This document shows positions 10,038 to 37,663 of a stretch of 39,913 nt of DNA, one piece after another. This DNA is from an uncultured Spartobacteria bacterium (GTDB lineage Bacteria; Verrucomicrobiota; Verrucomicrobiia; Chthoniobacterales; UBA6821): positions 1 through 39,913 of the forward strand of contig CAIKYN010000059.1 of NCBI GenBank assembly GCA_903831635.1, read 5' to 3'. Position 1 is the stretch's first letter, and each line of letters starts with the position of its first letter. Under the pieces are notes generated by a model. It searched no databases, was not told where the DNA came from, and worked only from the letters and a program-made list of their open reading frames with translations. The position numbers and the translations under genes were made by a program.

Positions 10038-10073
10038 CAGAGAGATATCTCAGGACGTCACCGTCTTTCAGCA

Positions 10074-10103: not shown

Positions 10104-10143
10104 CACTACCAGCTGAACCTTGGTGTAGGCGTGAGGCATGGCG

Positions 10144-11955: not shown

Positions 11956-11958
11956 ACG

Positions 11959-14835: not shown

Positions 14836-14851
14836 TGCCCCTGGCTCCCAT

Positions 14852-22600: not shown

Positions 22601-25600
22601 GGTGGTCTTTAGACCCGGGAAGAACAAATGTTACATTCATCAGAAACGGAGAAACTGGACCGTCGGTCGCATTTTCAGGTGTTGGTAATCAGTCCCAAGG
22701 AATCTGCATCGGAGAGGGATATATCAAAACCTTCACATGGCAGGGAGATATTGCAGAAGTGCTGATATATGACCATAAGCTTAGCAGTAATGAAATATCC
22801 AAGGTCAATCAGTACATAGGTGATAAATATGGATTGTACACGCCATCGGCAACCTGGCCAAACGCCTATTCGACATCTGGACAAAGTTTAATACAGCGAA
22901 ATAAGTGGAGTAAAAAGCAGGCTGATAATTATACGGTACAATCTTCCTTAAATCCCAATATCATGGCGACAGGACTTGCTCTATGGTTTAAGGCAGATAG
23001 TGGTATAGCAACAAATGGAACAAATGTTGTTGGATGGACAGATGCTATCCGTGGAGAAAAACTAAATCAATATTCAGCGGGAAACCAACCTGGATATGCT
23101 ACTAATATAGTTGGTGGGTTTCCAGTTGTGAGATATTCGGGAGGTAATCAATGGCTTTATTGTAGTGGGAATTCCACAAACGCTGCAAACCTTAACAGTG
23201 ACATGACGATGATCACTGTAGCTGCAACAACAAACCCCTCTCCACAACAGTACAGTGTGTACTTGGGTTCAGGAGGTACTGGTCAAAATAGAGCTATGGG
23301 ATATTATCAGAGTCGGGAGCTGATGGACACATATAATATTTACGGACAAGGAATTGCATCTCCCGATACCAATATTTTTGTTACTGAGTCTTGGACACTT
23401 AATTCGAACTGCACAGCACTTACCTTCTATCAAAATGGAGTTCAAACTGCGAGTAGTACTCTTTCCGGCGTTCAAAACATAGGCTCGGGTATCTCTATAG
23501 GTGCCGTAGCATTTGCATCTGGAATTGGTTGGCAAGGAGATATTGCTGAGGTTCTTGTTTATGATCACCAACTTAGCAGTAATGAATTTGCACAGGTAAA
23601 TCAGTACATCGGAGACAAATACGGAATGTACAATGCCTTTGCGAGCTGGACCAACGGCTATACACCTGCGGTTCAAGCTCAGATTGCTAAGCACCAATGG
23701 AATCGCCAGCAGGCTGATGCTTATGTGGCAATGCAATCCGCAAATACAAATGTGCTAACGACAGGGCTGAGCATGTGGTATCGAGCTGATGCGGGTATCA
23801 CAACAAATTCGACCAATGGACAAGTGACGAGTTGGGCGGATCAGACCGGCAATTACTCTGTGAGCCAGTCAAGTTCCAATAACCAGCCCTTATTAATTAC
23901 GAATGATCTTTCCGGTAAACCTGCATTGCGATTTAACGGAAGTCAGTTCTTGTACAATCCTCGACAGATCGACCCAGGAATGAACGGCGACATGACGATG
24001 ATTACCGTTGCATCAAGTTCTAAAACGAACGTTGGTCAGTTTACCTGTTATCTTGGAAACAGCTCAGACTACTCGGGAAGAGGCCTGGGCTACTATGGAT
24101 TCAAGCAATATTTTACTACTTATAATAATGATACAACAGGAACCAATCTCCCTGACGCAAATATTTTTAATGCAGAAGCTGTTACACTGAGTGCAAATAA
24201 AACAAATGTAGTTTTCTACCGAAATGGAATACAGACGCGAAATACATCAATTTCTTATCCAGCTGGAAGCGTTAGTCCTGGTGTAACCATTGGAGGAGAG
24301 GGCTTCCAGCTAAACTGGCAAGGAGATATTGCTGAGGTTCTTGTTTATGATCACCAACTTAGCAGTAATGAATTTGCACAGGTAAATCAGTACATCGGAG
24401 ACAAATACGGAATGTACAATGCCTTTGCGAGCTGGACTAACGGCTATACACCTGCGGTTCAAGCTCAGATTGCTAAGCACCAATGGAATCGCCAGCAGGC
24501 TGATGCTTATGTGGCAATGCAATCCGCAAATACAAATGTGCTAACGACAGGGCTGAGCATGTGGTATCGAGCTGACGCGGGTATCACAACGAATTCGACC
24601 AATGGACAAGTGGCGAGTTGGGCGGATCAGACCGGAAACTACTCTGTGAGCCAGCCAAGTTACAATAACCAGCCCTTATTAATTACGAATGATCTGTCCG
24701 GTAAACCTGCATTGCGATTTAACGGAAGTCAGTTCTTGTACAATCCTCGGCAGATCGACCCAGGTATGAATAGTGACATGACTATCGTCACTGTTGGGAT
24801 GACAACCAATCCTAACCATCAACAATATAGTTGCTATATGGGCGGGCCAAACTCAAGTACAGGAAGGGGTATCGGATATTATAATGGTAACCAGACTTTT
24901 TCGCTATATGATAACGATGTATTTTCTACAAACCCAGCTATTACCAATCGGTTTGCAGCAGAGTATGCAACTCTAGATACTAACCTAAAGTCTATTAATC
25001 TTTATAGAGACGCAATAAAAACAGCATCTCTAGCTGCTTCATATCCCGCTTCAACTATAGCTCCTGGAATCACTATTGGATCAGTCGGGACACGAACTGA
25101 TATAGCATGGCAAGGCGATATTGCTGAAGTCCTTGTGTATGACCATCAGCTCAGTCCACAAGAAATGACACAGTTGGGTGTTTACTTTATAGGAAAGTAT
25201 GGACTCTATATCTCGGTGCCTGCCCCGGTGATTTCTCCCAATGGTGGTACTAATTCAAATTCAGTAAATGTAACGATGACAGGTTATGCGTCGCCATCAC
25301 AGATTCGTTATACTTTGGATGGAAGCATTCCTAACAGCAATTCGCTTCTTTATTCTGGACAGCTCTCTTTAATTCAAAGCTCACAAATTCAGGCCGCTGT
25401 ATTTTTAAATGGGGTGATGATCAGCCCTATTGCAACGGCTCAGTATTACATCGGAGATACTTATCAGATTGGTATATCAGATGCATGGCAGTTACAGTAC
25501 TTCGGAACAGTATCGAATCTTAATCCTAATGCATTGGTCCCTGGTGGTAGTGGTCTTACTTACCTTCAAGCCTATGAGTGGGGGTATGATCCAACAAAAT

Positions 25601-25836
25601 ATTCAAGTAACGGAGATGGTCTTTCTGATTACGTAAACCATCTCCTCGGATATGGTGGAAATAATCTCGATATTAATGGAGACGGTTTGAGTAATGCGCA
25701 GGATCTGGCTCTTGGATTAAATCCATTTTATTCAAATACCAAGTACACAACAGCACCTACTGCAAATCCAAATGATCATTCTCTGCCAGTAATCAATCTT
25801 ACTGTCCCGAGCGGTGCCAATCTTCTTACCCACTAA
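16606..25836 (+). CDS. giant secreted repeat protein: 10 LamG/concanavalin-like (Laminin_G_3-type) modules, a chitobiase-C-like domain and Asp-rich Ca-binding-like repeats
   Basis: 3076-aa uninterrupted ORF with a signal peptide (RRSILVVICLVALPILTYAAAP). It contains ten modules of about 262-290 aa, each ending in WQG(D/N)I(A/T)E(V/I/L)L(V/I)YDH(Q/K)L(S/T). The C-terminus has IRYTLDGSIPNSNSLLY (CHB_HEX_C-like) and DINGDGLSNAQD. Confidence 0.85.
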   Translation: MDPKNSQKEGGFTRRSILVVICLVALPILTYAAAPEWWLQYGISTTQSLSTSKATDYSAINQGQLKNLANGAASAMDSYFPEGAGSDIHALVGSWSISNSYTSDYSAVNLGQLKSVAKPFYDKLIQKGYAQQYPWLSNTVSIPSDYSLANIGQAKNLFSFDPAQLAGYSTGYYTNASGSWYYGTFKNYYYSFTPSSQSTSMVTRHGWNSAQATNYYNFLSSNPTLMATGLTAWFRSDKGVIRSSNNKISKWVDQVTGNFSVLQNSNNSQPTIQTNVINGCPAINFNGFQTLTNTYLPSDPALNSDITLIAVCNTTNNSALQYSVAMGTWGNPYTCRSLGYNRGSQFMDSYGISPSGAPASSNGTYSVEACSVGPGLTNTIFYRNGTIMQTNTIGQLNGLTAGFNIGVARPGGVGWQGNIAELLVYDHQLTASEFSQVSTYLGSRYNTYAPGVPWLTNFTPAVQAVIASKQFNKDQADSYKLYLSTLNSSQTSIVLKHQWTITQAQNYFAMQSNNPGMLTSGLTAWFSSGNGVLTDSNGYVTTWIDQSTGAYTVSQTNQGQQPVYLTNTTNGYPLISFSGSNSLINPAAYADAGLNSDMTVIVVGDSTNNTLQQYAVTLGTWGTMTRCRALGYFRTAQVMDAYGISPNGAPAAANNTFTTEAWSLSPGLGSVSFYRNGNLTSSKSISGMGTLSPGIAVGASRAATETWQGSIAEILVYDHQLSASEWTNVNSYLNYKYYRGWVSDYSPSIQQVIQKHQWSHQQAAAYAKMVSNNPSMLTTGLTAWLRADGGVSVDTNGNVSSLTDQVTGNFSVGATSQSSGPTLITNALGGKSVLRFYGNQGLANDGALADPGLNSDMTMIVVGSTSSNYQQQYAVSIGAFWQWGARRALGYCNGLQQMDAYGIYAFGTNSPGNQSYTMEAWSLAGDMNTVSFYRNGNLTATNSLNGTLGNLNNGIYLGESYDGLGYNWSGDIAEILVYDHQLSPQEMLQVSSYVSGKYGLYSSNAPWLQGYTTDQQAEINKHQWSQSQAVNYAALQSNNPTILTTGLSAWFKADSGVSVDSSNNVTSWGDQTGNYNVNQSDVTDGYAPTYVTNDLNRLPALRFNGGQFLASTAQVDNGWNSDITIITVGATTNPSTGSQQYSCYVGGGGNAGDSRGMGYNDSWSVINGYWQLLNTQYADYDGIGLNGINPIAFGAFALEATTLASDLQTVGFYRNGTPTAGGSVTGITNISGGITLGARSGGIYGWQGDIAEVLVYDHQLSPQEMAQVSAYISGKYGLYSSNAPWLQNYSLDQQAAISRHQWNQTQAANYVALQSNNPIMLTAGLSAWFKADTGVTTNSDGAVLSWIDQLGNITVTQSNVVQQPSYVSNAQNGLPAVRFNGFQGLANASSVPDLGLTNDLTVIAVGNTTNNTAQQYAVAMGTWGNWGQMRSLGYLSSLQLMDTYGSQGQQYVLGTNAPNNGVYVSEGWSLSPGATNVTFSRNGSITGIVPIGGVSAISTGFYIGESSDQVCGWQGDVAEVLVYDHQLSQQEMAQVSAYISGKYGLYSSNAPWLQNYSVDQQAEINKHQWNATQASKYAAMQAANANLPTTGLSVWFNAASGVSTSGSNVIGWTDLVTGNFSVTQSNAAQQPSYVSNTLNGLPSVRFNGAQGLSNLTVPTDPGLTNDLTVIAVANTTNNVAQQYSVSMGTWGSWGQMRLLGYASSQEILNTYGNYRSQYVFGTNVANNSSYTMEGWSLSPGKTNAIFYRNGSVNANQPINGVSTISSGFNLGQAYNGVYGWQGDITEILVYDHQLSPQEMAQVSAYISGKYGLYSSNAPWLQNYSVDQQAEINKHQWNQSQAYSYALMQSNNTNVMTSGLTAWFRGDNGVITDSNNNVTSWVDQVTGSYSVSNSVAGMQPLFVTNSQLNGMPLIRLTGQQGLENLNVTIDPGLNTDMTVIEVGCTTNPGVQQYAVTLGTWGNYGQRRSLGYYNFSQIMDADSVYALGSSVPFGEAYTVEGWSLDPGRTNVTFIRNGETGPSVAFSGVGNQSQGICIGEGYIKTFTWQGDIAEVLIYDHKLSSNEISKVNQYIGDKYGLYTPSATWPNAYSTSGQSLIQRNKWSKKQADNYTVQSSLNPNIMATGLALWFKADSGIATNGTNVVGWTDAIRGEKLNQYSAGNQPGYATNIVGGFPVVRYSGGNQWLYCSGNSTNAANLNSDMTMITVAATTNPSPQQYSVYLGSGGTGQNRAMGYYQSRELMDTYNIYGQGIASPDTNIFVTESWTLNSNCTALTFYQNGVQTASSTLSGVQNIGSGISIGAVAFASGIGWQGDIAEVLVYDHQLSSNEFAQVNQYIGDKYGMYNAFASWTNGYTPAVQAQIAKHQWNRQQADAYVAMQSANTNVLTTGLSMWYRADAGITTNSTNGQVTSWADQTGNYSVSQSSSNNQPLLITNDLSGKPALRFNGSQFLYNPRQIDPGMNGDMTMITVASSSKTNVGQFTCYLGNSSDYSGRGLGYYGFKQYFTTYNNDTTGTNLPDANIFNAEAVTLSANKTNVVFYRNGIQTRNTSISYPAGSVSPGVTIGGEGFQLNWQGDIAEVLVYDHQLSSNEFAQVNQYIGDKYGMYNAFASWTNGYTPAVQAQIAKHQWNRQQADAYVAMQSANTNVLTTGLSMWYRADAGITTNSTNGQVASWADQTGNYSVSQPSYNNQPLLITNDLSGKPALRFNGSQFLYNPRQIDPGMNSDMTIVTVGMTTNPNHQQYSCYMGGPNSSTGRGIGYYNGNQTFSLYDNDVFSTNPAITNRFAAEYATLDTNLKSINLYRDAIKTASLAASYPASTIAPGITIGSVGTRTDIAWQGDIAEVLVYDHQLSPQEMTQLGVYFIGKYGLYISVPAPVISPNGGTNSNSVNVTMTGYASPSQIRYTLDGSIPNSNSLLYSGQLSLIQSSQIQAAVFLNGVMISPIATAQYYIGDTYQIGISDAWQLQYFGTVSNLNPNALVPGGSGLTYLQAYEWGYDPTKYSSNGDGLSDYVNHLLGYGGNNLDINGDGLSNAQDLALGLNPFYSNTKYTTAPTANPNDHSLPVINLTVPSGANLLTH
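23530..23985 (+). repeat. intragenic near-identical repeat, copy 1 (pairs with 24316-24771)
   Basis: A block of about 456 bp is repeated at an offset of exactly 786 bp (262 codons). I counted about 11 mismatches by eye. Confidence 0.9.
24316..24771 (+). repeat. intragenic near-identical repeat, copy 2
   Basis: See copy 1. Both encode WQGDIAEVLVYDHQLSSNEFAQVNQYIGDKYGMYNAFASWTNGYTPAVQAQIAKHQWNRQQADAYVAMQSANTNVLTTGLSMWYRADAGITTNSTNGQV... Confidence 0.9.
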
Positions 25837-25843
25837 GCATTAT

Positions 25844-28800
25844 ATGAAACCTCTCATATTGCATCGGCATCTTTTTTGGGCATTGGTAGGTGTATTGTTT
25901 AGTCATTCCATAAAAGCGCAGAGTAATACCCCCGCCCCGATCAATTACAATGTCACAGGATTTTCGGTTGTGGTTCCAGCGGCGAATATCAGTGCCAATG
26001 AAGGAGTGGAAGCTTTTCGGAATCTTCCTCAGTTCCCAGAGGCCCTAGTTCCGACATCCACACCTAGTGACTCGGATAATGCAGTCTTTGCAAATGCTGT
26101 TAATGCATTCCTGAGTAGAGGGACACCTGACGATTATAGCGCCTTGCAGGATTTTCTCACTGCCAATCCTGTTTCTCCTTGGAGAGTAGCAGTACTGGTC
26201 AACCTAGGGATCTTGCAGGAAAAGGGAGGATATTTCACTAAGGCCTTGGGAAATCTCACGACTGCTTGGAGCGAGGGGCAAGGATTAAGTTCTAATGTCG
26301 GAGTAATCTTAGCAGATCGAGCCTATGCGGAGTTATTGGAGCTACAATCACACCTTGGGCATGTGGTTGAGACGATGAATCTGATTGGGCAATCCTCCGG
26401 TAGGGTTTGGACAGGCAAAACTCCCAGAGTCATTGAGATGGCTCAGAAAGTAGTTGCAGACATGAAGAATGCACCGCAAAGCCCCAGTTTCCAGTGTGGA
26501 CCGACTTCACTGGGTCAGGTGGCGGCTGCACTCCATGTAAGTAATGCGATGGATGTCATTCTAGCAGGACACCATGCGGTTTCGGATACGAATGGATACA
26601 GCCTTGCTCAGCTTGGATCAATGAGCCAGCAGTATGGACTTCCATTGCAAATGGCCTATCGCAGCAAAGGGGCAGCGATTTTAACACCTGCAGTGATCCA
26701 TCTTGGTGTCGGTCACTACAGCGCACTCACGCAGCATGATGAGAAGAACGGTTATCTCCTTCAGGACACCTCGTTTAATCAGCAGATCTGGATGAGTTCT
26801 GCTACTGTGGATGCCGAGTCTAGCGGTTATTTCCTTGTTCCCGTTGGTCCCTTGCCGAGTGGATGGAGAGGAGTTGGGGTGGATGAGGCCGCAACAGTAT
26901 GGGGAAGTGGTAACACTCCCTTTAAGAATCCCGTCAGACCTAATCCAATTACACCGCAGTGCTGTCCATGCAATGGCATGCCGGTGGCGACGATAAATCT
27001 GCAGGAGGCTAGCGCACTATTGAAAGACACTCCTGTAGGGTATCAGCCTCCTGTAGGCCCGAGGATCGACTTTACCTTTACCATTGATGAGGGGAATACA
27101 TCACAACCCTCGATGATGAACTTTTGCAATATGGGAAGTCTGGCTTCGTTTAACTGGCTTGGGTACATCGAGTTTAATCCAAGCACCCCGACAGCAAGTG
27201 TGACGCTTTATGCGAGGGGAGGCGGGGTGGAAATCTACCAAGGGTATAATACGAACACCATGAGCTATCTCATCGGACAGAATACGGGTGTCGGATTAAA
27301 ACACTTAAGTTCTACGACCTTTGCTCGAATCTTTCCCGATGGATCTCAGGAAATCTACGCCCAGGATGATGGTGTGGTTGTGGGATCAGGAACCACTCTC
27401 AAGAGAGCCTTCCTCAGTCAGTTGATCGATCCACATGGGAATACCATCACTCTCAGCTACGATAGCCTACGCAGGATTGTTGGAATAACAGATCCGATTG
27501 GTCAGGTGACTACCTTGAGCTACGGGAGTAGTGGTGATCCCTACAAGATCACTCAAGTTACTGATCCGTTCGGGAGATCGGCGACCTTCAGCTATACTTC
27601 CAGCGGATTACTTACCTCCTCTACGGATGCCTTGGGACTTACGACTACCTTTGCCTGCAATGGTAGCATCCTGATGTCGATGACGACACCATACGGGACG
27701 ACTTCTTTTAGTGTCGGCAACAACGGTGGAGATAATACCTGGGTACAGATCACCGATCCGTTGGGAGGCACCGAGAGGGCCGAATCCTGGCCAACAGGAG
27801 CCCCGAAAGCCACTAATAGTGATCCGTTGGGAGCCCCATCTGGTATTGGCATGAACACCATCAATGATTACCTCCAGTATCGTACCACTTATTACTGGGG
27901 TAAACACGCGATGATGGTAGCTCCCGGTGATTTTACTGCGGCGTATGCCTATCAGTTCAACCACAGCCAAGATTCCCTCGGGAATGTCAATTACAACTCC
28001 ATGGGCAACTCACTGGAAACCGAGAAGCCACCTGGCGAGAGTCGTATCTGGTACAACTATCCTGGACAGGCAAACTCGATTGTAGATGGAAAACAACCCA
28101 ATCCCTCCGCCATCGGACGCCTCGTTCAGAACGCCCAAGGGCAGATAATGTCACAGATCACTCTGAAAGGCTACAACGCTCAAAACAACCTCACCAACGT
28201 GGTAGACCCCGCAGGTAGAGTAACGACTTATTTGTATGCAACCAATGGCCTGGACCTGACGAACGTCACACAGGGAGAGAGCACCATCTTTGCAGCTAGT
28301 TACAACGGCCAGCATCTTCCCCTGAGCATTACCGATGCTGCCGGTCAAACGACCACCTATAGCTACAACTTGTTCGGAGAGCGCCTTAGCATGACAGATC
28401 CCCTAGGGAATAATACTTCGTACAGTTATGATGGGAATGGATATCTCCTCTCCATCACAGCACCCTTGGGAGCGACCACTTCCTTCACGCATGATACAGT
28501 GGGCAGGATAGCCAGTGTTACCGATAGCGAGGGGTACAAGGTTACTTACAGTTATGACAATCTCGATAGGGTGACCTCCATGACCTATCCGGATGGCACC
28601 AGCAAGGTAATCAACTACGACAAACTCGACGTCGCCAGCATCACTGACCGCGAAGGGAGAAGCACCCACCAATGGTGGGATGCCAATAGACACATGATCG
28701 TCTCACAGGATCCCCTAGGACGTATTACGCAGTACAACTGGTGCAAGTGCGGCGTGCTAGAGGGACTCACCGATGCGAATGGCAATCAGACGAAGTTTTC

Positions 28801-30772
28801 CTACGATCCGGGAGTACGCCTCATCAGCAAATCCTACGCCGACGGAACGAGTCTCTCCTATGCCTACGACCTCTCGGGGCGACTCTCGACAGTCACCGAC
28901 GCATTGGGACAGGTAAAGACCGCCCGCTACAATGTCGATGATACCACAGCGAGCCTGAGCTACAGCAATGCAGTCAACATGACTCCCTCGGTCTCCATGA
29001 CCTGGGCCACGAACTACCCCCGCGTCATCACAGTCACCGATGGCAGCGGAACCAATAGCTTCAGCTACGTCCCCTACGGCTCTGTTGGTGGAGGGAAAGT
29101 CTCCTCCTTGACGACACCACTTGCACAGATCAATTACGGCTACGATGCCATGGGACGGCTAACCAACCGCCAGATTGGGAGCAACACCGAGAGCCTCAGC
29201 TACGATGCCCTCGGGAGAATGACTGGCGATACCAATACCCTCGGCAGCTTCGCCTACAGCTACGTCAATGCCACAGCACGACTTGCGAGCATCACCATGC
29301 CTGGAGGTATATCCAGCAGCTACACCTACTATGGGAATACTGGCAGCGCAGGGAATGAAGACCAGCGACTCAGCTCCATCACCAATACTATCGGCTCTAT
29401 CACCGCATCCCAGTTCGGATACAGCTACGACGTCGTGGGCAATATCACCGGATGGAGCCAAACCCAGCCGGGAGCCATGAGCAATGTGCTGGCCTGGGGC
29501 AACCAATACGATGCAGCCGACCAGCTCACAGCAGCTGCCATCAGTGATCAGGTCACCTCGGCAATGCTGACCAACAACGCCTTTACCTACGACATGGTGG
29601 GCAACCGCCTCTCCAAGCAGCAGAATAGCTCCCTCGTATCTGGAACCTTTAATAACCTCAATCAACTTACCGCCCTGAGTGGAGGAAGTGGCCGATTACA
29701 GGTTGGGGGAAGCGTTAGTAAAACCTCCAAGGTCACCGTGGTAACCGGCACCAATAGCTACCCCGCCACCACCCTCTGGGGAACCAACTTCAGCGCCAGC
29801 ATCGCAGCCAGCTTAGGGACCAATACATTCAGCGTGGTGGCCCAGGATGCCAATACGAACTTGGTCACCAATACCTACCAGATCGCCGTCACGGCTCTGG
29901 AGGGGAGTAGAAACTTCACCTACGATGCCAATGGGAACTGCCTCAGCGATGGACAACGGAGCTACCAGTGGGACGCCGAGAACAGACTCGCTACACTGAC
30001 GGTAGGCACCAATGTCTACAGCTTCGGATACGACTTCGCTGGTCGACGCATCTCCGAAAAACTCAATGGCACCCTAATCAAGCAAACCCTCTGGGACACG
30101 GCGGGTAACTCACCGATTCCACTGGAGGAGCGAGATGCGACTAATGGAGTGGCCAAGAGATTCTTTGCTCAGGGAGAGCAGCAGAATGGCACCAACTACT
30201 ACTACCTAAGAGACTATCTTGGATCTGTAAGGGAGATGGTTAGCAGTAGCGGATCTATTGTCTCCGAGGCCACCTACGATCCCTACGGAGTAGCAACAAT
30301 AACGGGGAGTGTCACACCCACCTTCCAGTACGCCGGATACTATGCCCATCAGGGGAGCGGACTGAGCCTCACCTGGTATCGAGGATACGATCCGGTGATC
30401 GGAAGGTGGCTAGCAAGGGATCCGCTGAAGAATGCAGAGAGAAAGCAGGGAATGAATCTGTATGATTATGCACAAAGAGATCCACTTAAAAAAACTGATC
30501 CCTTTGGTTTATTTAATATAGGTAAAATCGGACCGATACTACCGACACCTGATCCTTTTTGGGATAATATATTCCCACCAGAATTAGGTTCTCCCAAAAT
30601 CCCGGGACATTGTATCTTGATAAGCTCAACATTGACTGGAACATGCCCATCCATAAGGGTTTGTGTTTGGTCTTGTGTTGCGGCTCACACAGAAGGCATG
30701 CCATCATCAGCGCCGTACCAAACAATCACGGTGTGTACTGCAGATAAGGCCTGTAAATCTCCGTTAGATTAA
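25844..30772 (+). CDS. RHS/YD-repeat polymorphic toxin with Sec signal peptide, C39/papain-like N-terminal domain and a Cys-rich C-terminal tip
   Basis: ATG at 25844 gives MKPLILHRHLFWALVGVLFSHSIKAQS. QCGPTSL...HYSAL is a cysteine-peptidase-like pair. There are many YD repeats (YSYDGNGYLLSIT, YSYDNLDRVTSMTYPDG). The core end is YYYLRDYLGSVREMV...YRGYDPVIGRWLARDPL with the DPFGL cleavage-type motif. A tip of about 86 aa with 6 Cys follows. The start is 8 nt after the LamG gene stop. Confidence 0.85.
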   Translation: MKPLILHRHLFWALVGVLFSHSIKAQSNTPAPINYNVTGFSVVVPAANISANEGVEAFRNLPQFPEALVPTSTPSDSDNAVFANAVNAFLSRGTPDDYSALQDFLTANPVSPWRVAVLVNLGILQEKGGYFTKALGNLTTAWSEGQGLSSNVGVILADRAYAELLELQSHLGHVVETMNLIGQSSGRVWTGKTPRVIEMAQKVVADMKNAPQSPSFQCGPTSLGQVAAALHVSNAMDVILAGHHAVSDTNGYSLAQLGSMSQQYGLPLQMAYRSKGAAILTPAVIHLGVGHYSALTQHDEKNGYLLQDTSFNQQIWMSSATVDAESSGYFLVPVGPLPSGWRGVGVDEAATVWGSGNTPFKNPVRPNPITPQCCPCNGMPVATINLQEASALLKDTPVGYQPPVGPRIDFTFTIDEGNTSQPSMMNFCNMGSLASFNWLGYIEFNPSTPTASVTLYARGGGVEIYQGYNTNTMSYLIGQNTGVGLKHLSSTTFARIFPDGSQEIYAQDDGVVVGSGTTLKRAFLSQLIDPHGNTITLSYDSLRRIVGITDPIGQVTTLSYGSSGDPYKITQVTDPFGRSATFSYTSSGLLTSSTDALGLTTTFACNGSILMSMTTPYGTTSFSVGNNGGDNTWVQITDPLGGTERAESWPTGAPKATNSDPLGAPSGIGMNTINDYLQYRTTYYWGKHAMMVAPGDFTAAYAYQFNHSQDSLGNVNYNSMGNSLETEKPPGESRIWYNYPGQANSIVDGKQPNPSAIGRLVQNAQGQIMSQITLKGYNAQNNLTNVVDPAGRVTTYLYATNGLDLTNVTQGESTIFAASYNGQHLPLSITDAAGQTTTYSYNLFGERLSMTDPLGNNTSYSYDGNGYLLSITAPLGATTSFTHDTVGRIASVTDSEGYKVTYSYDNLDRVTSMTYPDGTSKVINYDKLDVASITDREGRSTHQWWDANRHMIVSQDPLGRITQYNWCKCGVLEGLTDANGNQTKFSYDPGVRLISKSYADGTSLSYAYDLSGRLSTVTDALGQVKTARYNVDDTTASLSYSNAVNMTPSVSMTWATNYPRVITVTDGSGTNSFSYVPYGSVGGGKVSSLTTPLAQINYGYDAMGRLTNRQIGSNTESLSYDALGRMTGDTNTLGSFAYSYVNATARLASITMPGGISSSYTYYGNTGSAGNEDQRLSSITNTIGSITASQFGYSYDVVGNITGWSQTQPGAMSNVLAWGNQYDAADQLTAAAISDQVTSAMLTNNAFTYDMVGNRLSKQQNSSLVSGTFNNLNQLTALSGGSGRLQVGGSVSKTSKVTVVTGTNSYPATTLWGTNFSASIAASLGTNTFSVVAQDANTNLVTNTYQIAVTALEGSRNFTYDANGNCLSDGQRSYQWDAENRLATLTVGTNVYSFGYDFAGRRISEKLNGTLIKQTLWDTAGNSPIPLEERDATNGVAKRFFAQGEQQNGTNYYYLRDYLGSVREMVSSSGSIVSEATYDPYGVATITGSVTPTFQYAGYYAHQGSGLSLTWYRGYDPVIGRWLARDPLKNAERKQGMNLYDYAQRDPLKKTDPFGLFNIGKIGPILPTPDPFWDNIFPPELGSPKIPGHCILISSTLTGTCPSIRVCVWSCVAAHTEGMPSSAPYQTITVCTADKACKSPLD
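30399..30472. repeat. inverted repeat arm 1 (end of Rhs core in the main gene)
   Basis: Matches the reverse complement of 33463-33536 over 74 bp with no indels and 10 mismatches. The 37-bp perfect core is 30407-30443. Confidence 0.9.
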
Positions 30773-30781
30773 GAAAAGGTT

Positions 30782-31291
30782 ATGAAAAGATATTTATATA
30801 TAGTCAGCATTCTACCCTCCATATTAATTGTTTCCATTTCTTTTTCTTTATTAATTGGCAGGTTATATGTGCAGAAATCATCTTCTATGAATCCATCTAT
30901 TATTAATAATGATAGGATTTTTATATTAAAATCTAAAAACATACAGAGATTTGATATTATTTGTTTTAACTTTACACAAGATGGAAAAACTTTCCCCATT
31001 CTAAAAAGAGTTATAGCATTTTCTGGTGAAAAAATTTTAATATCTTATGGAGAAATTAGAATTAATGATAAAATAATAAAACTACCTTCGGATATCGATG
31101 TGCAGAATCTTCTAGGGTCAGATTTAAATCCAATTAAATTTGGATCACCTTACAATTATATCGTTCCTCCAGGCGAACTTTTTATAATGGGAGACAACAC
31201 AAAGGATTCTTATGACAGTAGATATTATGGAGGAGTTCCTATTACTATGATAATAGGAAAAGCAGCTTGGATATTGCGTTTTTTAAAATAG
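30782..31291 (+). CDS. type I signal peptidase (S26 family) homologue
   Basis: N-terminal TM helix. Box B is SSSMNPSI, box D is ILKRVIAFSGEKI, and box E is GDNTKDSYDSRYYG. The DNA is very AT-rich. The start lies 9 nt after the rhs stop, the position normally held by an immunity gene. Confidence 0.8.
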   Translation: MKRYLYIVSILPSILIVSISFSLLIGRLYVQKSSSMNPSIINNDRIFILKSKNIQRFDIICFNFTQDGKTFPILKRVIAFSGEKILISYGEIRINDKIIKLPSDIDVQNLLGSDLNPIKFGSPYNYIVPPGELFIMGDNTKDSYDSRYYGGVPITMIIGKAAWILRFLK

Positions 31292-31422
31292 GTTCTTAGC
31301 AAAGATTCCGATAATTTAAAAACAGGTAATTTTACGAAATATTCATAACTTCGCATTAAATCTAAAAACTGTTATATGTTTAATAGTTTTGTGTAAAAAT
31401 ATTAACTGGTCATTCATTACAT

Positions 31423-32499
31423 CTAAATCTCATAATCGATCATTTCCTCGCTGAAGAGTTCATCGTTTTTCATCTTTGAGGCGGGATGGCATTTGCGATG
31501 CACCTCTTTAAGCTGGCGGATGTCGAGCGTGGTATAGATTGCGGTGGTCTCGAGTTTTTCGTGTCCTAGGAGCTGCTGGATGAAGCGGATGTCTGCCCCT
31601 CCCTCGAGCATATGGGTGGCGCAGGCATGGCGCAGCTGGTGGCAGCTTCCATGGCCCGCCAGTCCAGCTTTCTTCATGAAACTAGAAACCCTGCGGCTGA
31701 GTACGTCTGGATTGAAGGGGCCCCCGTAGCCGGTGAGGAAGAGGTGTGTCTCCTGACTATCTCTACAGAGGAGTGGGCGTGTCGTTTTGAGGTAGGAACG
31801 AATCCATGCGACGGCGCGTTTCCCGACTGGGATGATCCGATCCTTCTTCCCCTTGCCCAGTCGGATATGTAACGAGCCATGATCGGCGTTGAAGTCTTGG
31901 AGTTCCAGATTGCAGAGTTCAGCACGGCGGAGACCATTGGTATAGAAGAGCTCTAGAATCGCTCGATCACGGATTCCCAGAGGATCTGTGGTGTCCGGGA
32001 TGGAAAGGAGGCGTCTGATCTGTCGGATTGTCAGGGAGACGCTAGGAAGACGTTTCTCGGGACGGGGAAGGACCAGATCGATTGCTGGATCATAGGGAAT
32101 GATGCTCTTGCGATTCATCCAATGGAACCAATCCCGGAGGGTAGAGATCCGCTGTCTTTGTGCGCTCCAGCCCAAGGGTTTGCCCTTAGTCGGGTGGCGA
32201 TAACTCCAGAGCCATACTTGATAGGCTTCAAGAATGGACTGAGTGACCTGACTGGCGGAGGTCAGATTTCGAGCAGCACACCAATTGATAAATGTCTTCA
32301 GGGCATCTCGACGGCCCTCGATAGTACCGGGCGAGTAGTTGTGAGCCCTGAGTTGCTCCAGGTAGGTGTCCTGGAGTGTGCCTAGAGAGTCGGGAGACGT
32401 ACGATCCCAGCAGTCATGCCATTTGGCTATTCCACCTCGAGTATGAATCGGCCTATCCCGCATCCAGCGGATGGAAGCAATTCCCTTGGGAGCACTCAT
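31423..32499 (-). CDS. tyrosine site-specific recombinase (XerC/D-like phage-integrase family)
   Basis: Motifs: NGLRRAELCNL (Arg I), HQLRHACATHMLEGGADIRFIQQLLGHEKLETTAIYT (HxxR ... H ... Y), and an N-terminal SAM-like core-binding domain (YSPGTIEGRRDALKTFINWC). It is GC-rich, unlike its AT-rich flanks. Confidence 0.9.
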   Translation of the reverse strand: MSAPKGIASIRWMRDRPIHTRGGIAKWHDCWDRTSPDSLGTLQDTYLEQLRAHNYSPGTIEGRRDALKTFINWCAARNLTSASQVTQSILEAYQVWLWSYRHPTKGKPLGWSAQRQRISTLRDWFHWMNRKSIIPYDPAIDLVLPRPEKRLPSVSLTIRQIRRLLSIPDTTDPLGIRDRAILELFYTNGLRRAELCNLELQDFNADHGSLHIRLGKGKKDRIIPVGKRAVAWIRSYLKTTRPLLCRDSQETHLFLTGYGGPFNPDVLSRRVSSFMKKAGLAGHGSCHQLRHACATHMLEGGADIRFIQQLLGHEKLETTAIYTTLDIRQLKEVHRKCHPASKMKNDELFSEEMIDYEI

Positions 32500-32679
32500 G
32501 GCGGATGAGACGGCGTAAATGGCCTATCTCAATCACGCACATGGCGATCACAGAATCAAGATGATGGTTCTAGTGGAGGAATAGTTACAACTAAATATTT
32601 GATTTTGCTAGTATTTGTAACATATTATCTTTTTGTGTGCACTTATACTCCGCGGCATTATAGTTTTACAGATAAAAAT

Positions 32680-33099
32680 TTACTTTAGTGATTCTTTGTA
32701 TTCCGATAAGCTTTTATTATTAAGAGAAGGTAACATACCATTAATTACAGACATAGACTCAACCAACTGGAATTGTAACTGATCAAATCCAGGTTCTTTT
32801 GAAACATGATAACAAACAATTATTAAATCGGGAAAAACCCTGTCAGCTTGACCATGATACTTAAGACTACCACCACCCATATCTTGTCCTAAACCAATAT
32901 TTATTTTAAATCCAGATTTGTTCATTAAAACCTCCTTCACAGGAAACATATACTTACCGCTATTTTTTCTAATTGAACAAAGAACGATAAAATTAATCTT
33001 TCCTGGCGCCCTACCACAAGCAGTAATTAATAAAATCCCAAGCAATATACAAAAAGCTAATATTTTAGAATAAAGACTCTTTTTTTTAATTATTTGCAT
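32680..33099 (-). CDS. small lipoprotein, candidate immunity protein for the orphan Rhs tip
   Basis: The ATG at 33099-33097 gives MQIIKKKSLYSKILAFCILLGILLITAC (lipobox-like LITAC). The DNA is AT-rich. The gene lies immediately downstream of the orphan tip (stop at 33112). Confidence 0.6.
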   Translation of the reverse strand: MQIIKKKSLYSKILAFCILLGILLITACGRAPGKINFIVLCSIRKNSGKYMFPVKEVLMNKSGFKINIGLGQDMGGGSLKYHGQADRVFPDLIIVCYHVSKEPGFDQLQFQLVESMSVINGMLPSLNNKSLSEYKESLK

Positions 33100-33111
33100 T
33101 TTAGGAAACAA

Positions 33112-33621
33112 TTATTTGAGACTAGTATCAATATCCAAGGAATATGATATTTCAGTTTTTTCTGAAATCTTTGATTGTTTAGTTTCCACAGTAGTTTTAT
33201 GAGTACATGAGTCGGTACAAAAATATCTTTGTTGGCGGATCACATTATATAATTGCCCCCATTTCACTAAATAAACATCAATTCCATCTGGAATTGGAGA
33301 AAAACCCTCTTTGACATAATTAATTAAAGCGAATGCTCTTAAAAGTTGTCTTTGAATCTCATACTTATCACCGATATATTGTTTCCAATCAAATGAATCA
33401 CCCACAGGAACGCAAGTAACTTCTAATCCAAAAATATCTAGCCACTTAATACTATTATTAAGTGCATAGTTATACAAACCTATGCCCTGACTTCTCTCTG
33501 CATTCTTCAGCGGATCCCTTGCTAGCCATCTTCCGACCTTCAGAGAGGTTGGAAAACTCGGGGTGGAACGGTAGAGGAGTGCCACGCTCGAACTGTTACC
33601 TTGGGACCATCCGGGATGCAA
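33112..33621 (-). CDS. orphan Rhs C-terminal module (core-end stub plus alternative toxin tip), probably silent in this orientation
   Basis: Encodes ...LLYRSTPSFPTSLKVGRWLARDPLKNAERSQGIGLYNYALNNSIKWLDIFGLEVTC... followed by about 100 aa unrelated to the main tip. There is no Rhs shell upstream and no ATG start. Confidence 0.7.
   Translation of the reverse strand: MHPGWSQGNSSSVALLYRSTPSFPTSLKVGRWLARDPLKNAERSQGIGLYNYALNNSIKWLDIFGLEVTCVPVGDSFDWKQYIGDKYEIQRQLLRAFALINYVKEGFSPIPDGIDVYLVKWGQLYNVIRQQRYFCTDSCTHKTTVETKQSKISEKTEISYSLDIDTSLK
33463..33536. repeat. inverted repeat arm 2 (Rhs core-end stub of the orphan tip)
   Basis: Reverse complement of 30399-30472 with 64/74 identical. The 37-bp perfect core is 33492-33528. 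Confidence 0.9.
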
Positions 33622-33808
33622 GACCTCATTTGGTTCATCACCAAGACGCTCTAATCAGGACAACAGAAAACAACAAAACAACCATTGGCCATAAGGAGGA
33701 AGATAACTTTCCTTTCCCTCCTCTTTTTCCTTGAGTAGAGGATTTGAAAGAGCTAATCCTGTAGAAGGATTACCCCAATTCCAATCAACCCCGACCCCAG
33801 AACAAACC

Positions 33809-34015
33809 ATGAAATCGCAAAAAATCTATGTCGAAAGACGAGATCAAGGAGATTATGCAGTCCGGCGTGCTGGTTCACAGCGAGCCAGTGCTGTTGAATC
33901 GACTCAAGCTGAAGCCATAGCTCGAGCTCGGGAAATTGCTCCCGGAGCAAAACCCCATGTTGAACGTGTCCGCAATACGGACGGCGGTCATCCGGATAAG
34001 TGGAGGAGTGCTTAG
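33809..34015 (+). CDS. DUF2188-family small protein
   Basis: ATG at 33809 gives MKSQKIYVERRDQGDYAVRRAGSQRASAVESTQAEAIARAREIAPGAKPHVERVRNTDGGHPDKWRSA. This fits the DUF2188 pattern (W/Y-AV-R-x-G-x-RAS...TQAEAI..AR). Confidence 0.65.
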   Translation: MKSQKIYVERRDQGDYAVRRAGSQRASAVESTQAEAIARAREIAPGAKPHVERVRNTDGGHPDKWRSA

Positions 34016-34021
34016 CAATCT

Positions 34022-34720
34022 ATGGCTAGGAAACCGGCGCTTTCTTCGGTTGTTTTGAGGTACGAAAAAACCTTGGAATCTTCCGAGAATCTTTATGAGA
34101 CTGTAAAGCCATATTCAAATTCAACATGGGAAACATTTAAAAAAACGGATATACTTCATCCTGCTCAAGCAAGAGCAATCATCTCTCTTGCCTTTCTTCA
34201 AATTGTTACTGCATGGGAGGATTATGTTGAATCGGTATTTGTACGTTATGTTGCCGGTGCATCCTCTCCAAAAAACTACAAGCCAGCAGCGCGGGTTTCG
34301 GCGGTTAAAGATATTCATCATGCATTTCAGTTGCTCAGCCTCAATGAAGAGTATAGCCCTCAAAGGGACTATTTAAGCTGGAGCAACTGGAAATCTGTTG
34401 CATCTCGCTCAAAAATATTCTTTGAGTCTGGCCGTCCATTTACAAATCTGACTCTTAATGAAAACGATAGACTGAAGGATGCTGTTATTATAAGAAACAG
34501 AATCGCTCACAACTCATCTAAATGTAGATCTTCATTTGTTGAAATTTCTAAAAGACATCTTGGAATTGATAAAAAAGCAACCTTGCCGCAGGGCTTTTCT
34601 ACTGGAAAACTACTACTAACTGAATCAAATCGTCTCTTTGGGAAAAACTCAAAGCCAAAGCCTTACTTTGAACACTATCTGGAACTTTTTAGATCAATAT
34701 CTAAGAAGATATGTCCCTAA
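34022..34720 (+). CDS. HEPN-like protein (Rx4H motif), putative RNase/defence effector
   Basis: 232 aa, predicted helical. It has a TAWEDYVESVF motif and IIRNRIAHNSSK (R-x4-H), as in RiboL-PSP/MAE_28990-type HEPN domains. The start lies 6 nt after the DUF2188 stop. Confidence 0.55.
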   Translation: MARKPALSSVVLRYEKTLESSENLYETVKPYSNSTWETFKKTDILHPAQARAIISLAFLQIVTAWEDYVESVFVRYVAGASSPKNYKPAARVSAVKDIHHAFQLLSLNEEYSPQRDYLSWSNWKSVASRSKIFFESGRPFTNLTLNENDRLKDAVIIRNRIAHNSSKCRSSFVEISKRHLGIDKKATLPQGFSTGKLLLTESNRLFGKNSKPKPYFEHYLELFRSISKKICP

Positions 34721-34768
34721 AACTACAATGATTTACTCAATGTGGTGAGCAGCTTGCAGTCCTTTCAA

Positions 34769-34791
34769 GGCAAGAGTGATCGGGTGCATCC
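34769..34791. repeat. direct repeat GGCAAGAGTG(AT/GC)CGGGTGCATCC, copy 1
   Basis: 21/23 identical to 35808-35830, with weaker similarity extending about 25 bp upstream. The two copies flank the FRG gene. Confidence 0.8.
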
Positions 34792-35025
34792 ATGAGTCGA
34801 TGATTCCAGTTCAGATACACTCACATCACCTCTTGCCTAGTTGCTTTGATAGCGCTTCATGGCATCGTATCAAAGTTATATCTTGAGCGAATAAAGCTCT
34901 CTACTGTATGGCCTATCTACGCGCATTGTGATCCAGAAATGATAAAAAAATAATCAGGGCCATATCAATTTAGGGTAGGATACTTTCAAGAAGGGGGTGA
35001 GATCTCCCAAAACATAATCACAGTC

Positions 35026-35757
35026 ATGGAAACCTTTGAATCATTGGCAGAAATCATCGATTGGGCGTCCAAGCAGGAACGGTGTCATGTCGCGCAGTGG
35101 TTCTACAGGGGGCACGCCAACAAGGACTTTCAGCTTGTTCCTAAACTATGTCGTCTCAAGCAGGCGAAAGCTGATTCCTTTTCCTCATGGGAAGAAATGC
35201 AGAGCTCTCTGCTTGCAAGGTTTAGGCGCGAAGCAGAGGCGTTTACCTCTGGTAAATTATACGATGAGAATGACTGGCTGGCACTTGCTCAGCATCACGG
35301 TCTGCCGACCAGGCTTTTGGATTGGACCTCGAATCTCTTGATTGCTGTTTATTTCACCGTGACTGAGTTGGCTGATACGGATGGATGTGTTTGGGGATTA
35401 GGATTTCCGTCCACAAATAACTGTTATTCAGAAAGTACGATCTACTCGAAGGTTAAAACATTATGGGAAACGCCTTTCATTCATTTTCCAAAGCACCTTT
35501 CTCCTAGAATCATCAATCAGGGAGGATGCTTCACTGTTCATGTGGATGACGTTCCCCTTGATAAGGACGCCCGGTGCAAAGACATCATGAAAATTGAGAA
35601 AATCATCATTACCAGCAGTGCCAAGAAGCGAATCAGGCACTCGCTCTACGATTTGGGAATCCATGAGTCGTTTGTGTATCCAGGCATAGAAGGGATATCA
35701 CAGAGACTTCTCTATGAGATCGATACGCGGGTTACGTTTCTGACTAAAGAATCGTAA
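35026..35757 (+). CDS. FRG-domain protein
   Basis: WFYRGHANKDFQLVPKLCR and LALAQHHGLPTRLLDWTSNLLIAVYF match the FRG-domain signature. Confidence 0.8.
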   Translation: METFESLAEIIDWASKQERCHVAQWFYRGHANKDFQLVPKLCRLKQAKADSFSSWEEMQSSLLARFRREAEAFTSGKLYDENDWLALAQHHGLPTRLLDWTSNLLIAVYFTVTELADTDGCVWGLGFPSTNNCYSESTIYSKVKTLWETPFIHFPKHLSPRIINQGGCFTVHVDDVPLDKDARCKDIMKIEKIIITSSAKKRIRHSLYDLGIHESFVYPGIEGISQRLLYEIDTRVTFLTKES

Positions 35758-35770
35758 TGCGTCTCCGAAT

Positions 35771-35792
35771 CCTGCTCCCAATTGGGAGCAGG
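35771..35792 (+). terminator. perfect 22-nt palindrome CCTGCTCCCAATTGGGAGCAGG downstream of the FRG gene
   Basis: 9-bp GC-rich stem with a 4-nt loop, 14 nt after the stop codon. No U-tract follows, so the terminator role is uncertain. Confidence 0.4.
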
Positions 35793-35807
35793 TAGCTGCG
35801 CCATCCC

Positions 35808-35830
35808 GGCAAGAGTGGCCGGGTGCATCC
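35808..35830. repeat. direct repeat GGCAAGAGTG(AT/GC)CGGGTGCATCC, copy 2
   Basis: See copy 1. Confidence 0.8.
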
Positions 35831-35852
35831 CAGAGGCAGTCATCCTTCTCCC

Positions 35853-36221
35853 ATGGCTCCATATGGGGCTGTTGGTTGTATCACGGATGAAGTGACAGGT
35901 AAGGCAGAGGAGGGTTTTTCACCCCGGGTGAAAAACCTGAACCTTATCGGTCCCAAAGTCCGTCGCCTCCGCCATCAACGCAGCTGGTCTCAGAATGACC
36001 TGGCAATTCGCCTCCAAATCCTCGGGATGGATGAGGGGACCCGAGGCCGTGTTTCCAAGATCGAGGCCCGTCTTGTCTGGGTGTCTGACGAGGACATGAT
36101 CTACCTGGCTAGGGCACTCAAGGTCGAGGTAGGGGATCTCTATCCGGTAGTGATCCGCAAATCCGACTGCCTGCACGAGGCCATCGGAGCCGCAAAGGCC
36201 TCCCGCTACGGGGTCGCCTGA
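35853..36221 (+). CDS. XRE-family helix-turn-helix transcriptional regulator
   Basis: IGPKVRRLRHQRSWSQNDLAIRLQILGMDEGTRGRVSKIEAR is a classic HTH_3 pattern. The start is uncertain (GTG 35823, ATG 35853 or GTG 35929). Confidence 0.75.
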   Translation: MAPYGAVGCITDEVTGKAEEGFSPRVKNLNLIGPKVRRLRHQRSWSQNDLAIRLQILGMDEGTRGRVSKIEARLVWVSDEDMIYLARALKVEVGDLYPVVIRKSDCLHEAIGAAKASRYGVA

Positions 36222-37076: not shown

Positions 37077-37328
37077 ATGCACCACGTCATCCTCGCTCAA
37101 TCAAGCTCACTCGACGGCGCGTTGTCCCAAGGACTTGGGATTATTGCGAAGTTCCTCTACATCATCGCGGTCATTGTCATCGCCCATGGCGGATGGCAGG
37201 TCCGCAGCGGTAATGCCGACATGGGCAAGATGTCGATCGTGGGAGGGCTGCTCCTAGGTCTCTCAGTCCTGATCGCCCAAGCGCTCTTCAGCGCAGGCGG
37301 GATGCCGACCATCAGCGTGGGGCAATGA
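37077..37328 (+). CDS. VirB2/TrbC-like pilin candidate
   Basis: 83 aa with two hydrophobic helices (GLGIIAKFLYIIAVIVIAHGGW, MSIVGGLLLGLSVLIAQALF). It lies directly upstream of VirB3-like and VirB4-like genes. Its stop overlaps the next start (ATGA at 37325). Confidence 0.5.
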   Translation: MHHVILAQSSSLDGALSQGLGIIAKFLYIIAVIVIAHGGWQVRSGNADMGKMSIVGGLLLGLSVLIAQALFSAGGMPTISVGQ

Positions 37329-37663
37329 GCCGGGGCGTGATTCCAACCCATGCGGGTGATGACAGCGACGGCAAGATCTGGGGGATCGAGGGGATGAATA
37401 TCCTCTTCCTGCTCGCCAGTGGGATGATCGGCCTTGGATTGGCCCTCATGCTTTCGCACGGGCACTCACCGGCAGTCTGCGTGGGAATCGGCGCCCTGCC
37501 TTTCGTGGTGACTGCTCTCTACATCTTCGGCCTGCGGCAAGGGAAGCCGAAGTCGTTCGATACCGATTTGCTCGAAACCCTCCTCTCCGGAAACGGGTGG
37601 ATGGCCCCAGTCAAACAACCCCGCAATCCACTCATCCATGCAGGCTCCCATGCAAGCTCCTAA
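37325..37663 (+). CDS. VirB3/TraL-like small inner-membrane T4SS protein candidate
   Basis: 112 aa with two TM helices (ILFLLASGMIGLGLALML, VGIGALPFVVTALYIFGL). It overlaps the start of the VirB4-like gene. Confidence 0.45.
   Translation: MSRGVIPTHAGDDSDGKIWGIEGMNILFLLASGMIGLGLALMLSHGHSPAVCVGIGALPFVVTALYIFGLRQGKPKSFDTDLLETLLSGNGWMAPVKQPRNPLIHAGSHASS

Follow-up and report, generated by a model that had tools for sequence, protein, structure and literature searches.

Introduction

In the R64 shufflon, the tyrosine recombinase Rci works on seven sfx sites of 19-bp repeats and switches the C-terminus of PilV, and in the G segment of phage Mu and the C segment of phage P1 the serine invertases Gin and Cin, which are encoded outside the segment and need an enhancer and Fis, govern the tail-fibre alternatives S-U and S'-U'. 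Here we describe an Rhs toxin locus of an uncultured Spartobacteria bacterium, carried on a stretch of 39,913 nt (contig CAIKYN010000059.1 of GenBank assembly GCA_903831635.1; the whole stretch is called the window), in which the core end of the toxin recurs in inverted orientation in front of a second, parked tip, with a tyrosine recombinase gene between the two copies. A preliminary description, made from the sequence alone, had proposed this arrangement as a candidate inversion switch. We estimate, at a probability of roughly 0.55, that the locus is a site-specific tip-exchange module for the Rhs toxin, in which the recombinase would catalyse inversion between two facing sites.

The locus resembles the R64 shufflon in its tyrosine recombinase, its short in-frame repeats and a constant N-terminal part joined to alternative C-terminal segments. 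It differs in its two sites and two states, where a shufflon has multiple 19-bp sfx repeats, in the position of the recombinase inside the segment, in the partner (immunity) gene that accompanies each variable end, and in its target, an Rhs toxin, with the inversion being predicted from sequence; moreover, the enzyme, whose best family and structure matches are Xer-type, is probably no Rci orthologue. As in Mu G and P1 C, a constant 5´ gene part lies outside the segment, two opposed variable 3´ ends with accessory genes lie inside, and the repeats are within coding sequence, but the enzyme of the present locus is a tyrosine recombinase whose own gene lies within the segment. Phase-variable type I hsdS loci, for example S. 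pneumoniae ivr with PsrA/CreX, shuffle gene halves by means of a tyrosine recombinase and inverted repeats (PMC7096588). They share with the present locus a tyrosine recombinase beside or among inverted repeats in coding sequence and alternative gene parts, but alter the specificity of a DNA-binding subunit rather than a toxin tip and its immunity, and their repeats and enzyme are unrelated. The in-frame inverted repeats in coding sequence, the constant/variable boundary and the internal recombinase are features of gene-altering inversions, a systematic survey of which leaves toxins unmentioned (PMC9881135). By analogy, the module appears to work like the R64 shufflon, the Mu G segment and the invertible hsdS loci while being a member of none of them. 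In keeping with the preliminary description, no inversion-type Rhs switch was described in the literature searched, and we lean slightly towards regarding shufflon-like C-terminal switching, of a known kind but applied to Rhs, as what is new here.

For Rhs toxins, orphan tips and C-terminal displacement have been documented in which homologous recombination between direct repeats leads to deletion or duplication (Jackson 2009, PMC2935791; Koskiniemi 2014, PMC3967940). Like these classical loci, in which recombination changes the deployed toxin, the locus combines a full-length rhs gene with a silent tip-immunity module sharing core-end homology; unlike in them, the repeat is inverted, short and tied to a dedicated site-specific recombinase. 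XerC/D genes have been found next to polyimmunity loci (PMC3482391), and Rhs-associated integrases have been reported in bee-gut bacteria as an association without a mechanism (PMC5727410). The linkage of an Xer-related recombinase to exchangeable conflict-gene cassettes is shared with integrons and immunity arrays. Unlike in integrons, the repeats of the window are coding core-end sequence and the integrase models score far below their cut-offs (TIGR02249, 111 bits against 265; PRK15417, 78.5 against 435), and an integron integrase was accordingly rejected; attC-type sites are likewise lacking, although no search aimed at them was made. The immunity-array and bee-gut reports concern arrays or proximity, not the in-frame tip exchange at a defined codon that is predicted here.

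Two toxin tips face each other between inverted core-end repeats

The main rhs gene (25814-30772, + strand) encodes a signal peptide, a YD-repeat shell (RHS_repeat, 9e-64; YD_repeat_2x), the core end (Rhs_assc_core at residues 1488-1566) and tip 1, in a protein of 1652 aa from a GTG start or 1642 aa as called from 25844. The core end, ..GRWLARDPL..NLYDY..DPFGL, fits the core-end motif ..GRxxxxDP..NLYxY..DPxGL, after which a variable tip and a partner gene follow; the locus is that of an Rhs/YD polymorphic toxin with an orphan tip. The part specific to tip 1 (30474-30772, + strand; GC content 0.42) comprises the remainder of the core end to DPFGL and then a Cys-rich C-terminal domain of ~86 aa. 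Its partner (30782-31291, + strand) is an S26 signal-peptidase-I-like membrane protein of 169 aa (Peptidase_S26, 1.3e-30; sigpep_I_bact, 1.4e-29), which retains the SMNPS, KRVIA and GDN..S.DSR boxes with the catalytic Ser/Lys. An S26 signal-peptidase-I homologue is not a typical small immunity protein, and may act by proteolysis or processing rather than by binding. In another metagenome (locus L173), an orphan tip 71% identical to tip 1 is followed by a 168-aa S26 gene (L173 2570-3076).

Tip 2 is carried on the opposite strand by an orphan open reading frame (ORF) of 169 aa (33112-33621, - strand; Rhs_assc_core, 1e-05), the first 29 residues of which are not Rhs-like; the tip-2-specific part spans 33112-33461 (- strand; GC 0.31). 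The adjoining gene in the ORF list (32680-33099, - strand) encodes a 139-aa lipoprotein with a signal peptide and an LITAC lipobox, and its proposed role as the partner of tip 2 fits the presence of a 139-aa gene after tip 2 or tip-2-like tips in L084 and L085. Tip 2 is 100% identical to the tip of the homologue P0121 and 69% identical to P0122, a tip-2-like protein in which the tip is fused to a genuine Rhs core; the L085 locus has such a tip-2-like domain (69%) attached to a real Rhs core and accompanied by a 139-aa partner. The orphan is a shell-less module of a core-end fragment, an intact tip and a cognate partner. Since both tip-partner pairs are kept elsewhere, it looks functional rather than decayed, decay being a possibility that the preliminary description had raised. 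It is inverted and convergent with the main rhs gene, whereas classical orphans lie downstream in direct orientation.

Repeat finding in the window returned inverted arms of 75 nt each, 87% complementary and spaced by 2988 nt. The left arm, at the expression site (30399-30473, + strand), and the right arm, at the parking site (33462-33536, - strand), are identical at 65 of 75 positions in direct comparison and contain a perfect 37-mer (30407-30443 / 33492-33528), where the chance expectation for an exact inverted 37-mer in 40 kb is ~4e-14. The repeat noted at the outset is therefore real, as is its reading frame: GRWLARDPLKNAER is encoded in frame by both arms and is read alike by the Rhs ORF and the orphan ORF. 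The perfect core of the left arm opens at the TGG (Trp) codon of GRWLARDP and spans 12 third-codon positions, and the 75-nt repeat extends 8 nt upstream of this codon. The repeat had been equated with the end of the Rhs core; it does lie within the core-end motif, but the canonical core end (to DPFGL / DIFGL) continues ~25 codons past the DNA repeat, so that the repeat falls within the motif, short of where the motif ends.

The 17-nt core TGGCTANNNAGRGATCC occurs twice in the window, once per arm, implying two sites and two states. Directly 5´ of the orphan core end lies a non-Rhs sequence, the leader (33537-33600, - strand), which is conserved in the relative L086 and shares AACC..GGTCGG with a leader motif found 3´ of the integrase in the canonical elements described below. 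The shell arm and the leader arm have ~25 nt in common, TCGGAAGR-TGGCTANNNAGRGATCC. Upstream of the Trp codon the shell arm reads ..ATCGGAAGG|TGG and the leader arm in the window's clade ..GGTCGGAAGR|TGG, and base -1 of TGG differs between the arms of the window, being G at the shell and A at the leader. A scan for promoters and terminators gave results at chance level. The tip-partner cassettes are AT-rich (GC 0.28-0.42). The GC drop described for both repeats is abrupt at the right arm (0.48 to 0.31), but on the left GC falls stepwise, from 0.48 in the arm to 0.42 in tip 1 and 0.28 in the S26 gene.

From this geometry, the segment between the perfect cores (30444-33491, no strand), with tip 1, the S26 gene, the recombinase, the lipoprotein gene and tip 2, is predicted to be invertible, and analogous segment-sized contigs are seen in L088, L174 and L175. 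When the inversion products were computed, the in-frame fusion proposed earlier was recovered: an in-frame 1669-aa Rhs protein with tip 2 is predicted, together with a 152-aa orphan joining the leader to tip 1.

The recombinase belongs to a clade with inverted cassettes and no primase

The gene between the tips (31423-32499, - strand) encodes an Xer-type tyrosine recombinase of 358 aa (Phage_integrase, 5e-41; XerD structure 1a0p, 5e-40). Its catalytic motifs had been noted as intact-looking, and all catalytic residues are indeed kept, with R191, K219, H287, R290, H313 and Y322 invariant among 25 homologues. The R-K-H-R-H-Y set, the core-binding domain and the XerC/XerD similarity mark the protein, by sequence, as a simple Xer type with no arm-binding domain; the match to the SAM-like N-terminal domain is weak. 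Against NF002331, a XerC-like NCBIfam subfamily, the protein scores 367.6 bits (cut-off 371), and its homologues number more than 5000 at E<1e-10. A XerC/XerD dimer-resolvase orthologue was considered and rejected (TIGR02224, 237.9 bits against a cut-off of 335; TIGR02225, 235.7 against 329.6), and the position of the gene among AT-rich cassettes in a mobile element also counts against an orthologue of the chromosome-dimer resolvase. The gene itself has a host-like GC of 0.54, and no primase is adjacent.

In a neighbour-joining tree, the recombinase groups with P0001 (91% identity), P0002 (83%) and P0004 (67%), apart from the canonical members of the family; P0003 (89%), encoded on L174, was left out of the tree alignment, and P0005 (64%) is already canonical, with a primase, a recombinase and a leader-core end in this order. 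At the clade loci extending far enough past the recombinase, namely the window, L086/L087, L088, L174 and L175, an opposite-strand core end lies 690-1050 nt 3´ of the recombinase, and none of these loci has a primase. The full order, in which a core end, a tip, a partner, sometimes extra genes and the recombinase are met from the other side by a partner, a tip and a core end on the opposite strand, is present in the window, L088 (83%), L174 (89%) and L175 (67%), with cassettes that are all different. L086 shows only the half of this order 3´ of the recombinase, after which the contig ends. Homology among the clade relatives is limited to the recombinase gene and ~65 nt upstream (31420-32565), and the clade leader is the canonical leader shifted by 2 nt.

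With cassettes on both sides turning over between relatives, the locus appears to serve for the exchange of cassettes as well as being a two-state switch. The inversion module of the preliminary description is retained in its geometry and in-frame logic, but it is neither a stand-alone invention nor solely a two-state device: by its sequence relationships, the module looks to be a primase-less derived offshoot of integrative elements that insert into Rhs core ends.

Relatives of the recombinase are linked to a fixed position in Rhs core ends

We collected 158 loci with recombinase relatives at 40-61% identity from species-representative genomes and JGI metagenomes, and scanned them with a core-end profile made from the data. 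A same-strand Rhs core end follows within 1.5 kb (median 426 nt) for 62 of the 103 recombinase copies with at least 1.5 kb of downstream sequence; an opposite-strand core end within 1.5 kb downstream was found for none of these 103. A second same-strand core end lies upstream, at a median of 6.0 kb, for 24/37 copies with at least 8 kb on that side, and many short contigs of relatives open exactly at the core end. The two core ends enclose a tip, small ORFs, often a helix-turn-helix (HTH) gene, and a ~1000-aa DnaG-type primase directly 5´ of the recombinase. Between shell-attached and leader-attached core ends, DNA identity starts exactly with the first nucleotide of the Trp (or Phe) codon in GRW/F..DP and lasts for roughly 14-48 nt, with unrelated sequence upstream, in at least eight loci (clear pairs: L008, L009, L012, L032, L036, L063, L096 and L098). 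On the non-Rhs side, the leader motif ..AAAACCGCRTCGGGTCGG.. is conserved 6-9 nt before the Trp/Phe codon. Together, the shared segment and the leader motif form the attL/attR signature of an integrative element.

These elements, of ~6-8 kb, consist of a tip, a partner gene, an HTH gene, the ~1000-aa DnaG-type primase, an Xer-type integrase and the leader motif, and are present in L006-L083, L090-L169 and L176 (for example, L009 304-7260, L082 3217-11356 and L069 4423-12984). Lying between direct repeats at core ends, they constitute a large and apparently undescribed family, and have the appearance of mobile elements by which a new tip is brought in and the previous one displaced. In this model, the canonical element would attach at the core-end codon, and its insertion would put the new tip on the shell and displace the old tip downstream. 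Since the position of the site in these relatives is the Trp codon at which the perfect core of the window opens, the repeat arms are very probably the sites of the window's own recombinase.

Several features of the family were noted in passing. In long-read genomes (L011, L032, L050-L056 and L071), units of ~7-8 kb that each contain one core end and one copy of the recombinase are arrayed in tandem, which suggests repeated insertion at one rhs gene. Second recombinase copies at coordinate 11375 in five loci were considered as stitching artefacts, an explanation rejected on finding them 88-99.9% identical, as real tandem units. The association of Rhs with a recombinase extends to the Ralstonia pseudosolanacearum GMI1000 megaplasmid (NC_003296, 88864-109781; L181), where an Rhs core end (7933-8091 of the locus) is followed by a XerC-like recombinase of 42% identity (9887-10975), two orphan core-end fragments that start elsewhere in the motif (..VASG|PTIYAYV..) and another Rhs fragment. 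In L041 (9962-11878) and L057 (7459-9468), the recombinase ORF runs stop-free into the downstream core end and tip, giving 638 and 669 aa, which is either a real fusion or a chance open frame.

The window itself does not have the makeup of such an element: it lacks a primase, carries its repeats in inverted orientation and does not have the leader 3´ of the recombinase, where a search for the canonical leader motif found none. A metagenome scan for close relatives of the recombinase returned matches at 61% identity or below, none of them close. Given the homology of its recombinase to the integrases of the canonical elements (up to 61%) and the same site position, the window is best described, at the level of sequence, as a derived relative of the primase-integrase elements and not as a member.

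Orientation in relatives and in same-strain assemblies

A related locus with the recombinase in the opposite orientation is found in two samples, as L086 (ENA) and L087 (Logan). Both share the window leader (93% over 82 nt), and L086 also shares the PIN-gene flank of the window (93% over 832 nt), with a different tip and partner parked at the leader. The recombinase (83% nucleotide identity) is inverted relative to the leader in both and, in L086, relative to the flank as well, a topology that, on sequence comparison, is the one expected of the flipped state. Other sequences, too, point to exchange of DNA at the arms. In L084, the tip 2-lipoprotein-recombinase block recurs (96%) but is preceded by another AT-rich cassette, and homology to the window begins ~20 nt before TGG; P0127, a 622-aa fragment 95.5% identical to the Rhs shell of the window, has another tip after GRWLARDPL.

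The JGI contig L174 (4382 nt) starts at the T of the core-end TGG and stops at the TGG of the inverted core end. Its ends share only TGGCTATCrAGrGATCCG, 18 nt with 2 mismatches, a repeat too short to break assembly by repeat collapse, so that the flanks were presumably heterogeneous in that sample; a cut at base +1 on both sides is what an assembly graph would yield if each end joined two flanks differing from base -1. The termini accordingly seem to indicate heterogeneity of the flanks within the population. A Logan contig assembled at k=31 (L004, 30414-33521), which ends inside the arms, was rejected as evidence, as the 37-nt perfect repeat exceeds k.

A number of observations weigh against an active switch. 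The window and three long, independently assembled metagenome contigs of the same strain from other samples are collinear, with 0, 0 and 2 mismatches over ~15.5 kb, the two mismatches (in L002) lying outside the arms; no flipped state was found among these same-sequence contigs. The three, k141 contigs, were assembled straight through both arms, which implies that few or no cells of those populations have the flipped state. The tip-2 protein cluster has six members, every one of them an orphan of 157-169 aa and none fused to a shell. The L086 contig ends before any Rhs shell, and its recombinase is frameshifted near the 5´ end (6006-6357), with the N-terminal 78 codons in another frame, which reflects either an error of sequencing or the loss of an active enzyme, with the locus then fixed as it lies. 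As the cassettes differ in all relatives, the L086 orientation could also reflect independent cassette assembly and no simple flip. Finally, no dif-like or dyad-symmetric binding site was clear by eye in the arms.

Homologue searches with both tips for shell-tip 2 or leader-tip 1 chimeras returned only orphans, and a protein-cluster look-up likewise contained no 1659-aa chimera; this is weak evidence given an insensitive word-index search that failed to return even the window's own Rhs. In the sampled populations the locus is in the tip-1-ON state, and switching in this strain is evidently not frequent. The preliminary description had called for the opposite orientation to be sought in related genomes: the L086 recombinase lies opposite with respect to a syntenic flank, whereas the four same-strain assemblies are all in one orientation.

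Proposed mechanism and alternative explanations

Starting from the anatomy of the locus, the link between the recombinase family and its site, the inverted architecture, the opposite orientation in a relative and the alternative tips on the same core, we infer that the recombinase acts on these two arms, reversibly and at a useful rate. The Xer-type enzyme would recognise a ~25-nt site at the core-end Trp codon (TCGGAAGR|TGGCTANNNAGRGATCC), present once at the shell end and once, inverted, before the parked tip 2. Strand exchange within the common 37 nt, opening at the Trp codon, would flip 30444-33491 (3.05 kb), the inverted sites making the reaction an inversion. The flip would fuse the shell in frame to tip 2, with the lipoprotein partner next, and park tip 1 with its S26 partner behind the non-Rhs leader. 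The recombinase, inside the segment, would turn with it; in the flipped state it would follow the rhs operon and be read in the same direction, an arrangement that could, as speculation, couple its expression to the state. Such a module may have originated from mobile primase-integrase elements inserting at the same rhs codon, with loss of the primase in this clade and the integrase now serving in residence to invert DNA and exchange cassettes; the cassette turnover would be explained if cassettes are captured or replaced at these same sites.

The alternative that survives best, although we consider it unlikely, is that the locus is a static relic, the recombinase being only the past or present integrase of a tip-delivering cassette element and the inverted orphan a by-product without meaningful switching. 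The uniform orientation of the same-strain assemblies and their passage through both arms, the confinement of tip 2 to orphans, the frameshift in L086 and the direct repeats with which most of the family works as an integrative element all fit this explanation. It has difficulty with the inverted two-cassette order: four loci of a single clade, reaching down to 67% identity, have this order around differing cargo (L086 has half of it), and an accident would hardly explain this. A relic also sits poorly with an intact recombinase ORF that has all its catalytic residues, with a 37-mer kept perfect including the 12 third-codon positions, and with the flank heterogeneity indicated by the L174 termini.

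It is improbable that RecA-dependent homologous recombination between the core-end repeats operates here as in classical Rhs orphans, with the recombinase a bystander. Orphan activation by homologous recombination is established in Salmonella (PMC3967940), and in three Acidobacteriota loci of our set (L069, L071 and L080) the orphans do retain ~600 nt of core homology. In the window, however, homology amounts to 75 nt with 37 perfect, and in L174 to 18 nt with 2 mismatches; many unrelated loci agree in the exact codon at which identity opens and have a conserved non-coding leader motif to one side of it, and the recombinase gene is linked to the site on a fixed strand (the 62 of 103 copies above). 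The remaining alternative, which the preliminary description had also raised, is that the recombinase serves as integrase for the conjugative element around it (ArdC, relaxase and coupling protein at 3.3-7.8 kb; type IV secretion system [T4SS]-like genes from 37 kb) with its att site elsewhere and its place between the tips incidental, and this is very improbable, the gene lying in the interior, flanked left and right by transfer genes, instead of at an end of the element, the recombinases of L088, L174 and L175 lying between tip cassettes without transfer genes, no canonical leader or att-like motif adjoining its 3´ end, and the whole family being tied to Rhs core ends.

Genetic surroundings of the module

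The window lies inside a conjugative element, and the Rhs locus is cargo of this transmissible element. The left side (features given without strand) has ArdC (3328-4287), a relaxase-like gene (4948-6099), a coupling protein (6279-7808), a Gabija-like pair of a UvrD helicase and an OLD-family ATPase (10144-13743), and Abi_C (13826-14851). To the right of the module follow DUF2188, HEPN, FRG, HTH and PIN genes, then T4SS-like genes (37077-37328 and 37325-37663) and an 896-aa ORF that starts at 37650 and runs off the window at 39913 (likewise without strand). A search for a tRNA gene as a possible att site found none; with the recombinase internal, not at an element boundary, and neither a tRNA gene nor a leader motif beside it, a mere integrase of the surrounding element is disfavoured.

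Between the leader and the PIN gene lies a DUF2188 / HEPN (RiboL-PSP) / FRG / HTH block (33731-36221). In L086 it is replaced by a 575-nt stretch (3386-3961) with a T2SSE C-terminal fragment, and the block is, by this comparison, a probable variable defence-like islet directly beside the parking site. Upstream of rhs, a YadA-head-like ORF (15841-16554) precedes the gene for a secreted protein of 3076 aa (16606-25836) with eight matched Laminin_G_3 (LamG-like) stretches and CHB_HEX_C/Fn3-associated domains. The last 23 nt of this gene overlap the rhs ORF as annotated from its GTG start, and the overlap means that the two may be co-expressed.

Discussion

The diversity of Rhs and other polymorphic toxins is generally attributed to homologous recombination with orphan tips, and accounts of tip arrival and displacement have so far been descriptive. 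If the tip-exchange module acts as proposed, a dedicated recombinase and a ~25-nt core-end site would provide a concrete, testable mechanism, one that would cover tip delivery by the canonical elements, orphan-array formation through direct repeats, and tip switching in the inverted form. Tentatively, and at somewhat less than even odds, we suggest that a clade of Xer-type integrases has been domesticated into a resident 'Rhs shufflon', in which reversible inversion and cassette capture change the delivered tip while both immunity genes are kept. More broadly, and with the same reserve, site-specific recombination at the core-end Trp codon may, besides homologous recombination, account for much of the acquisition of tips, their displacement into orphan arrays and their reactivation, in Verrucomicrobiota and Acidobacteriota and as far afield as Ralstonia. 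The compact recombinase-site pair would also lend itself to engineering. For the bacteria themselves, programmed inversion would then extend to toxin arsenals, which would bear on kin discrimination and on competition between strains.

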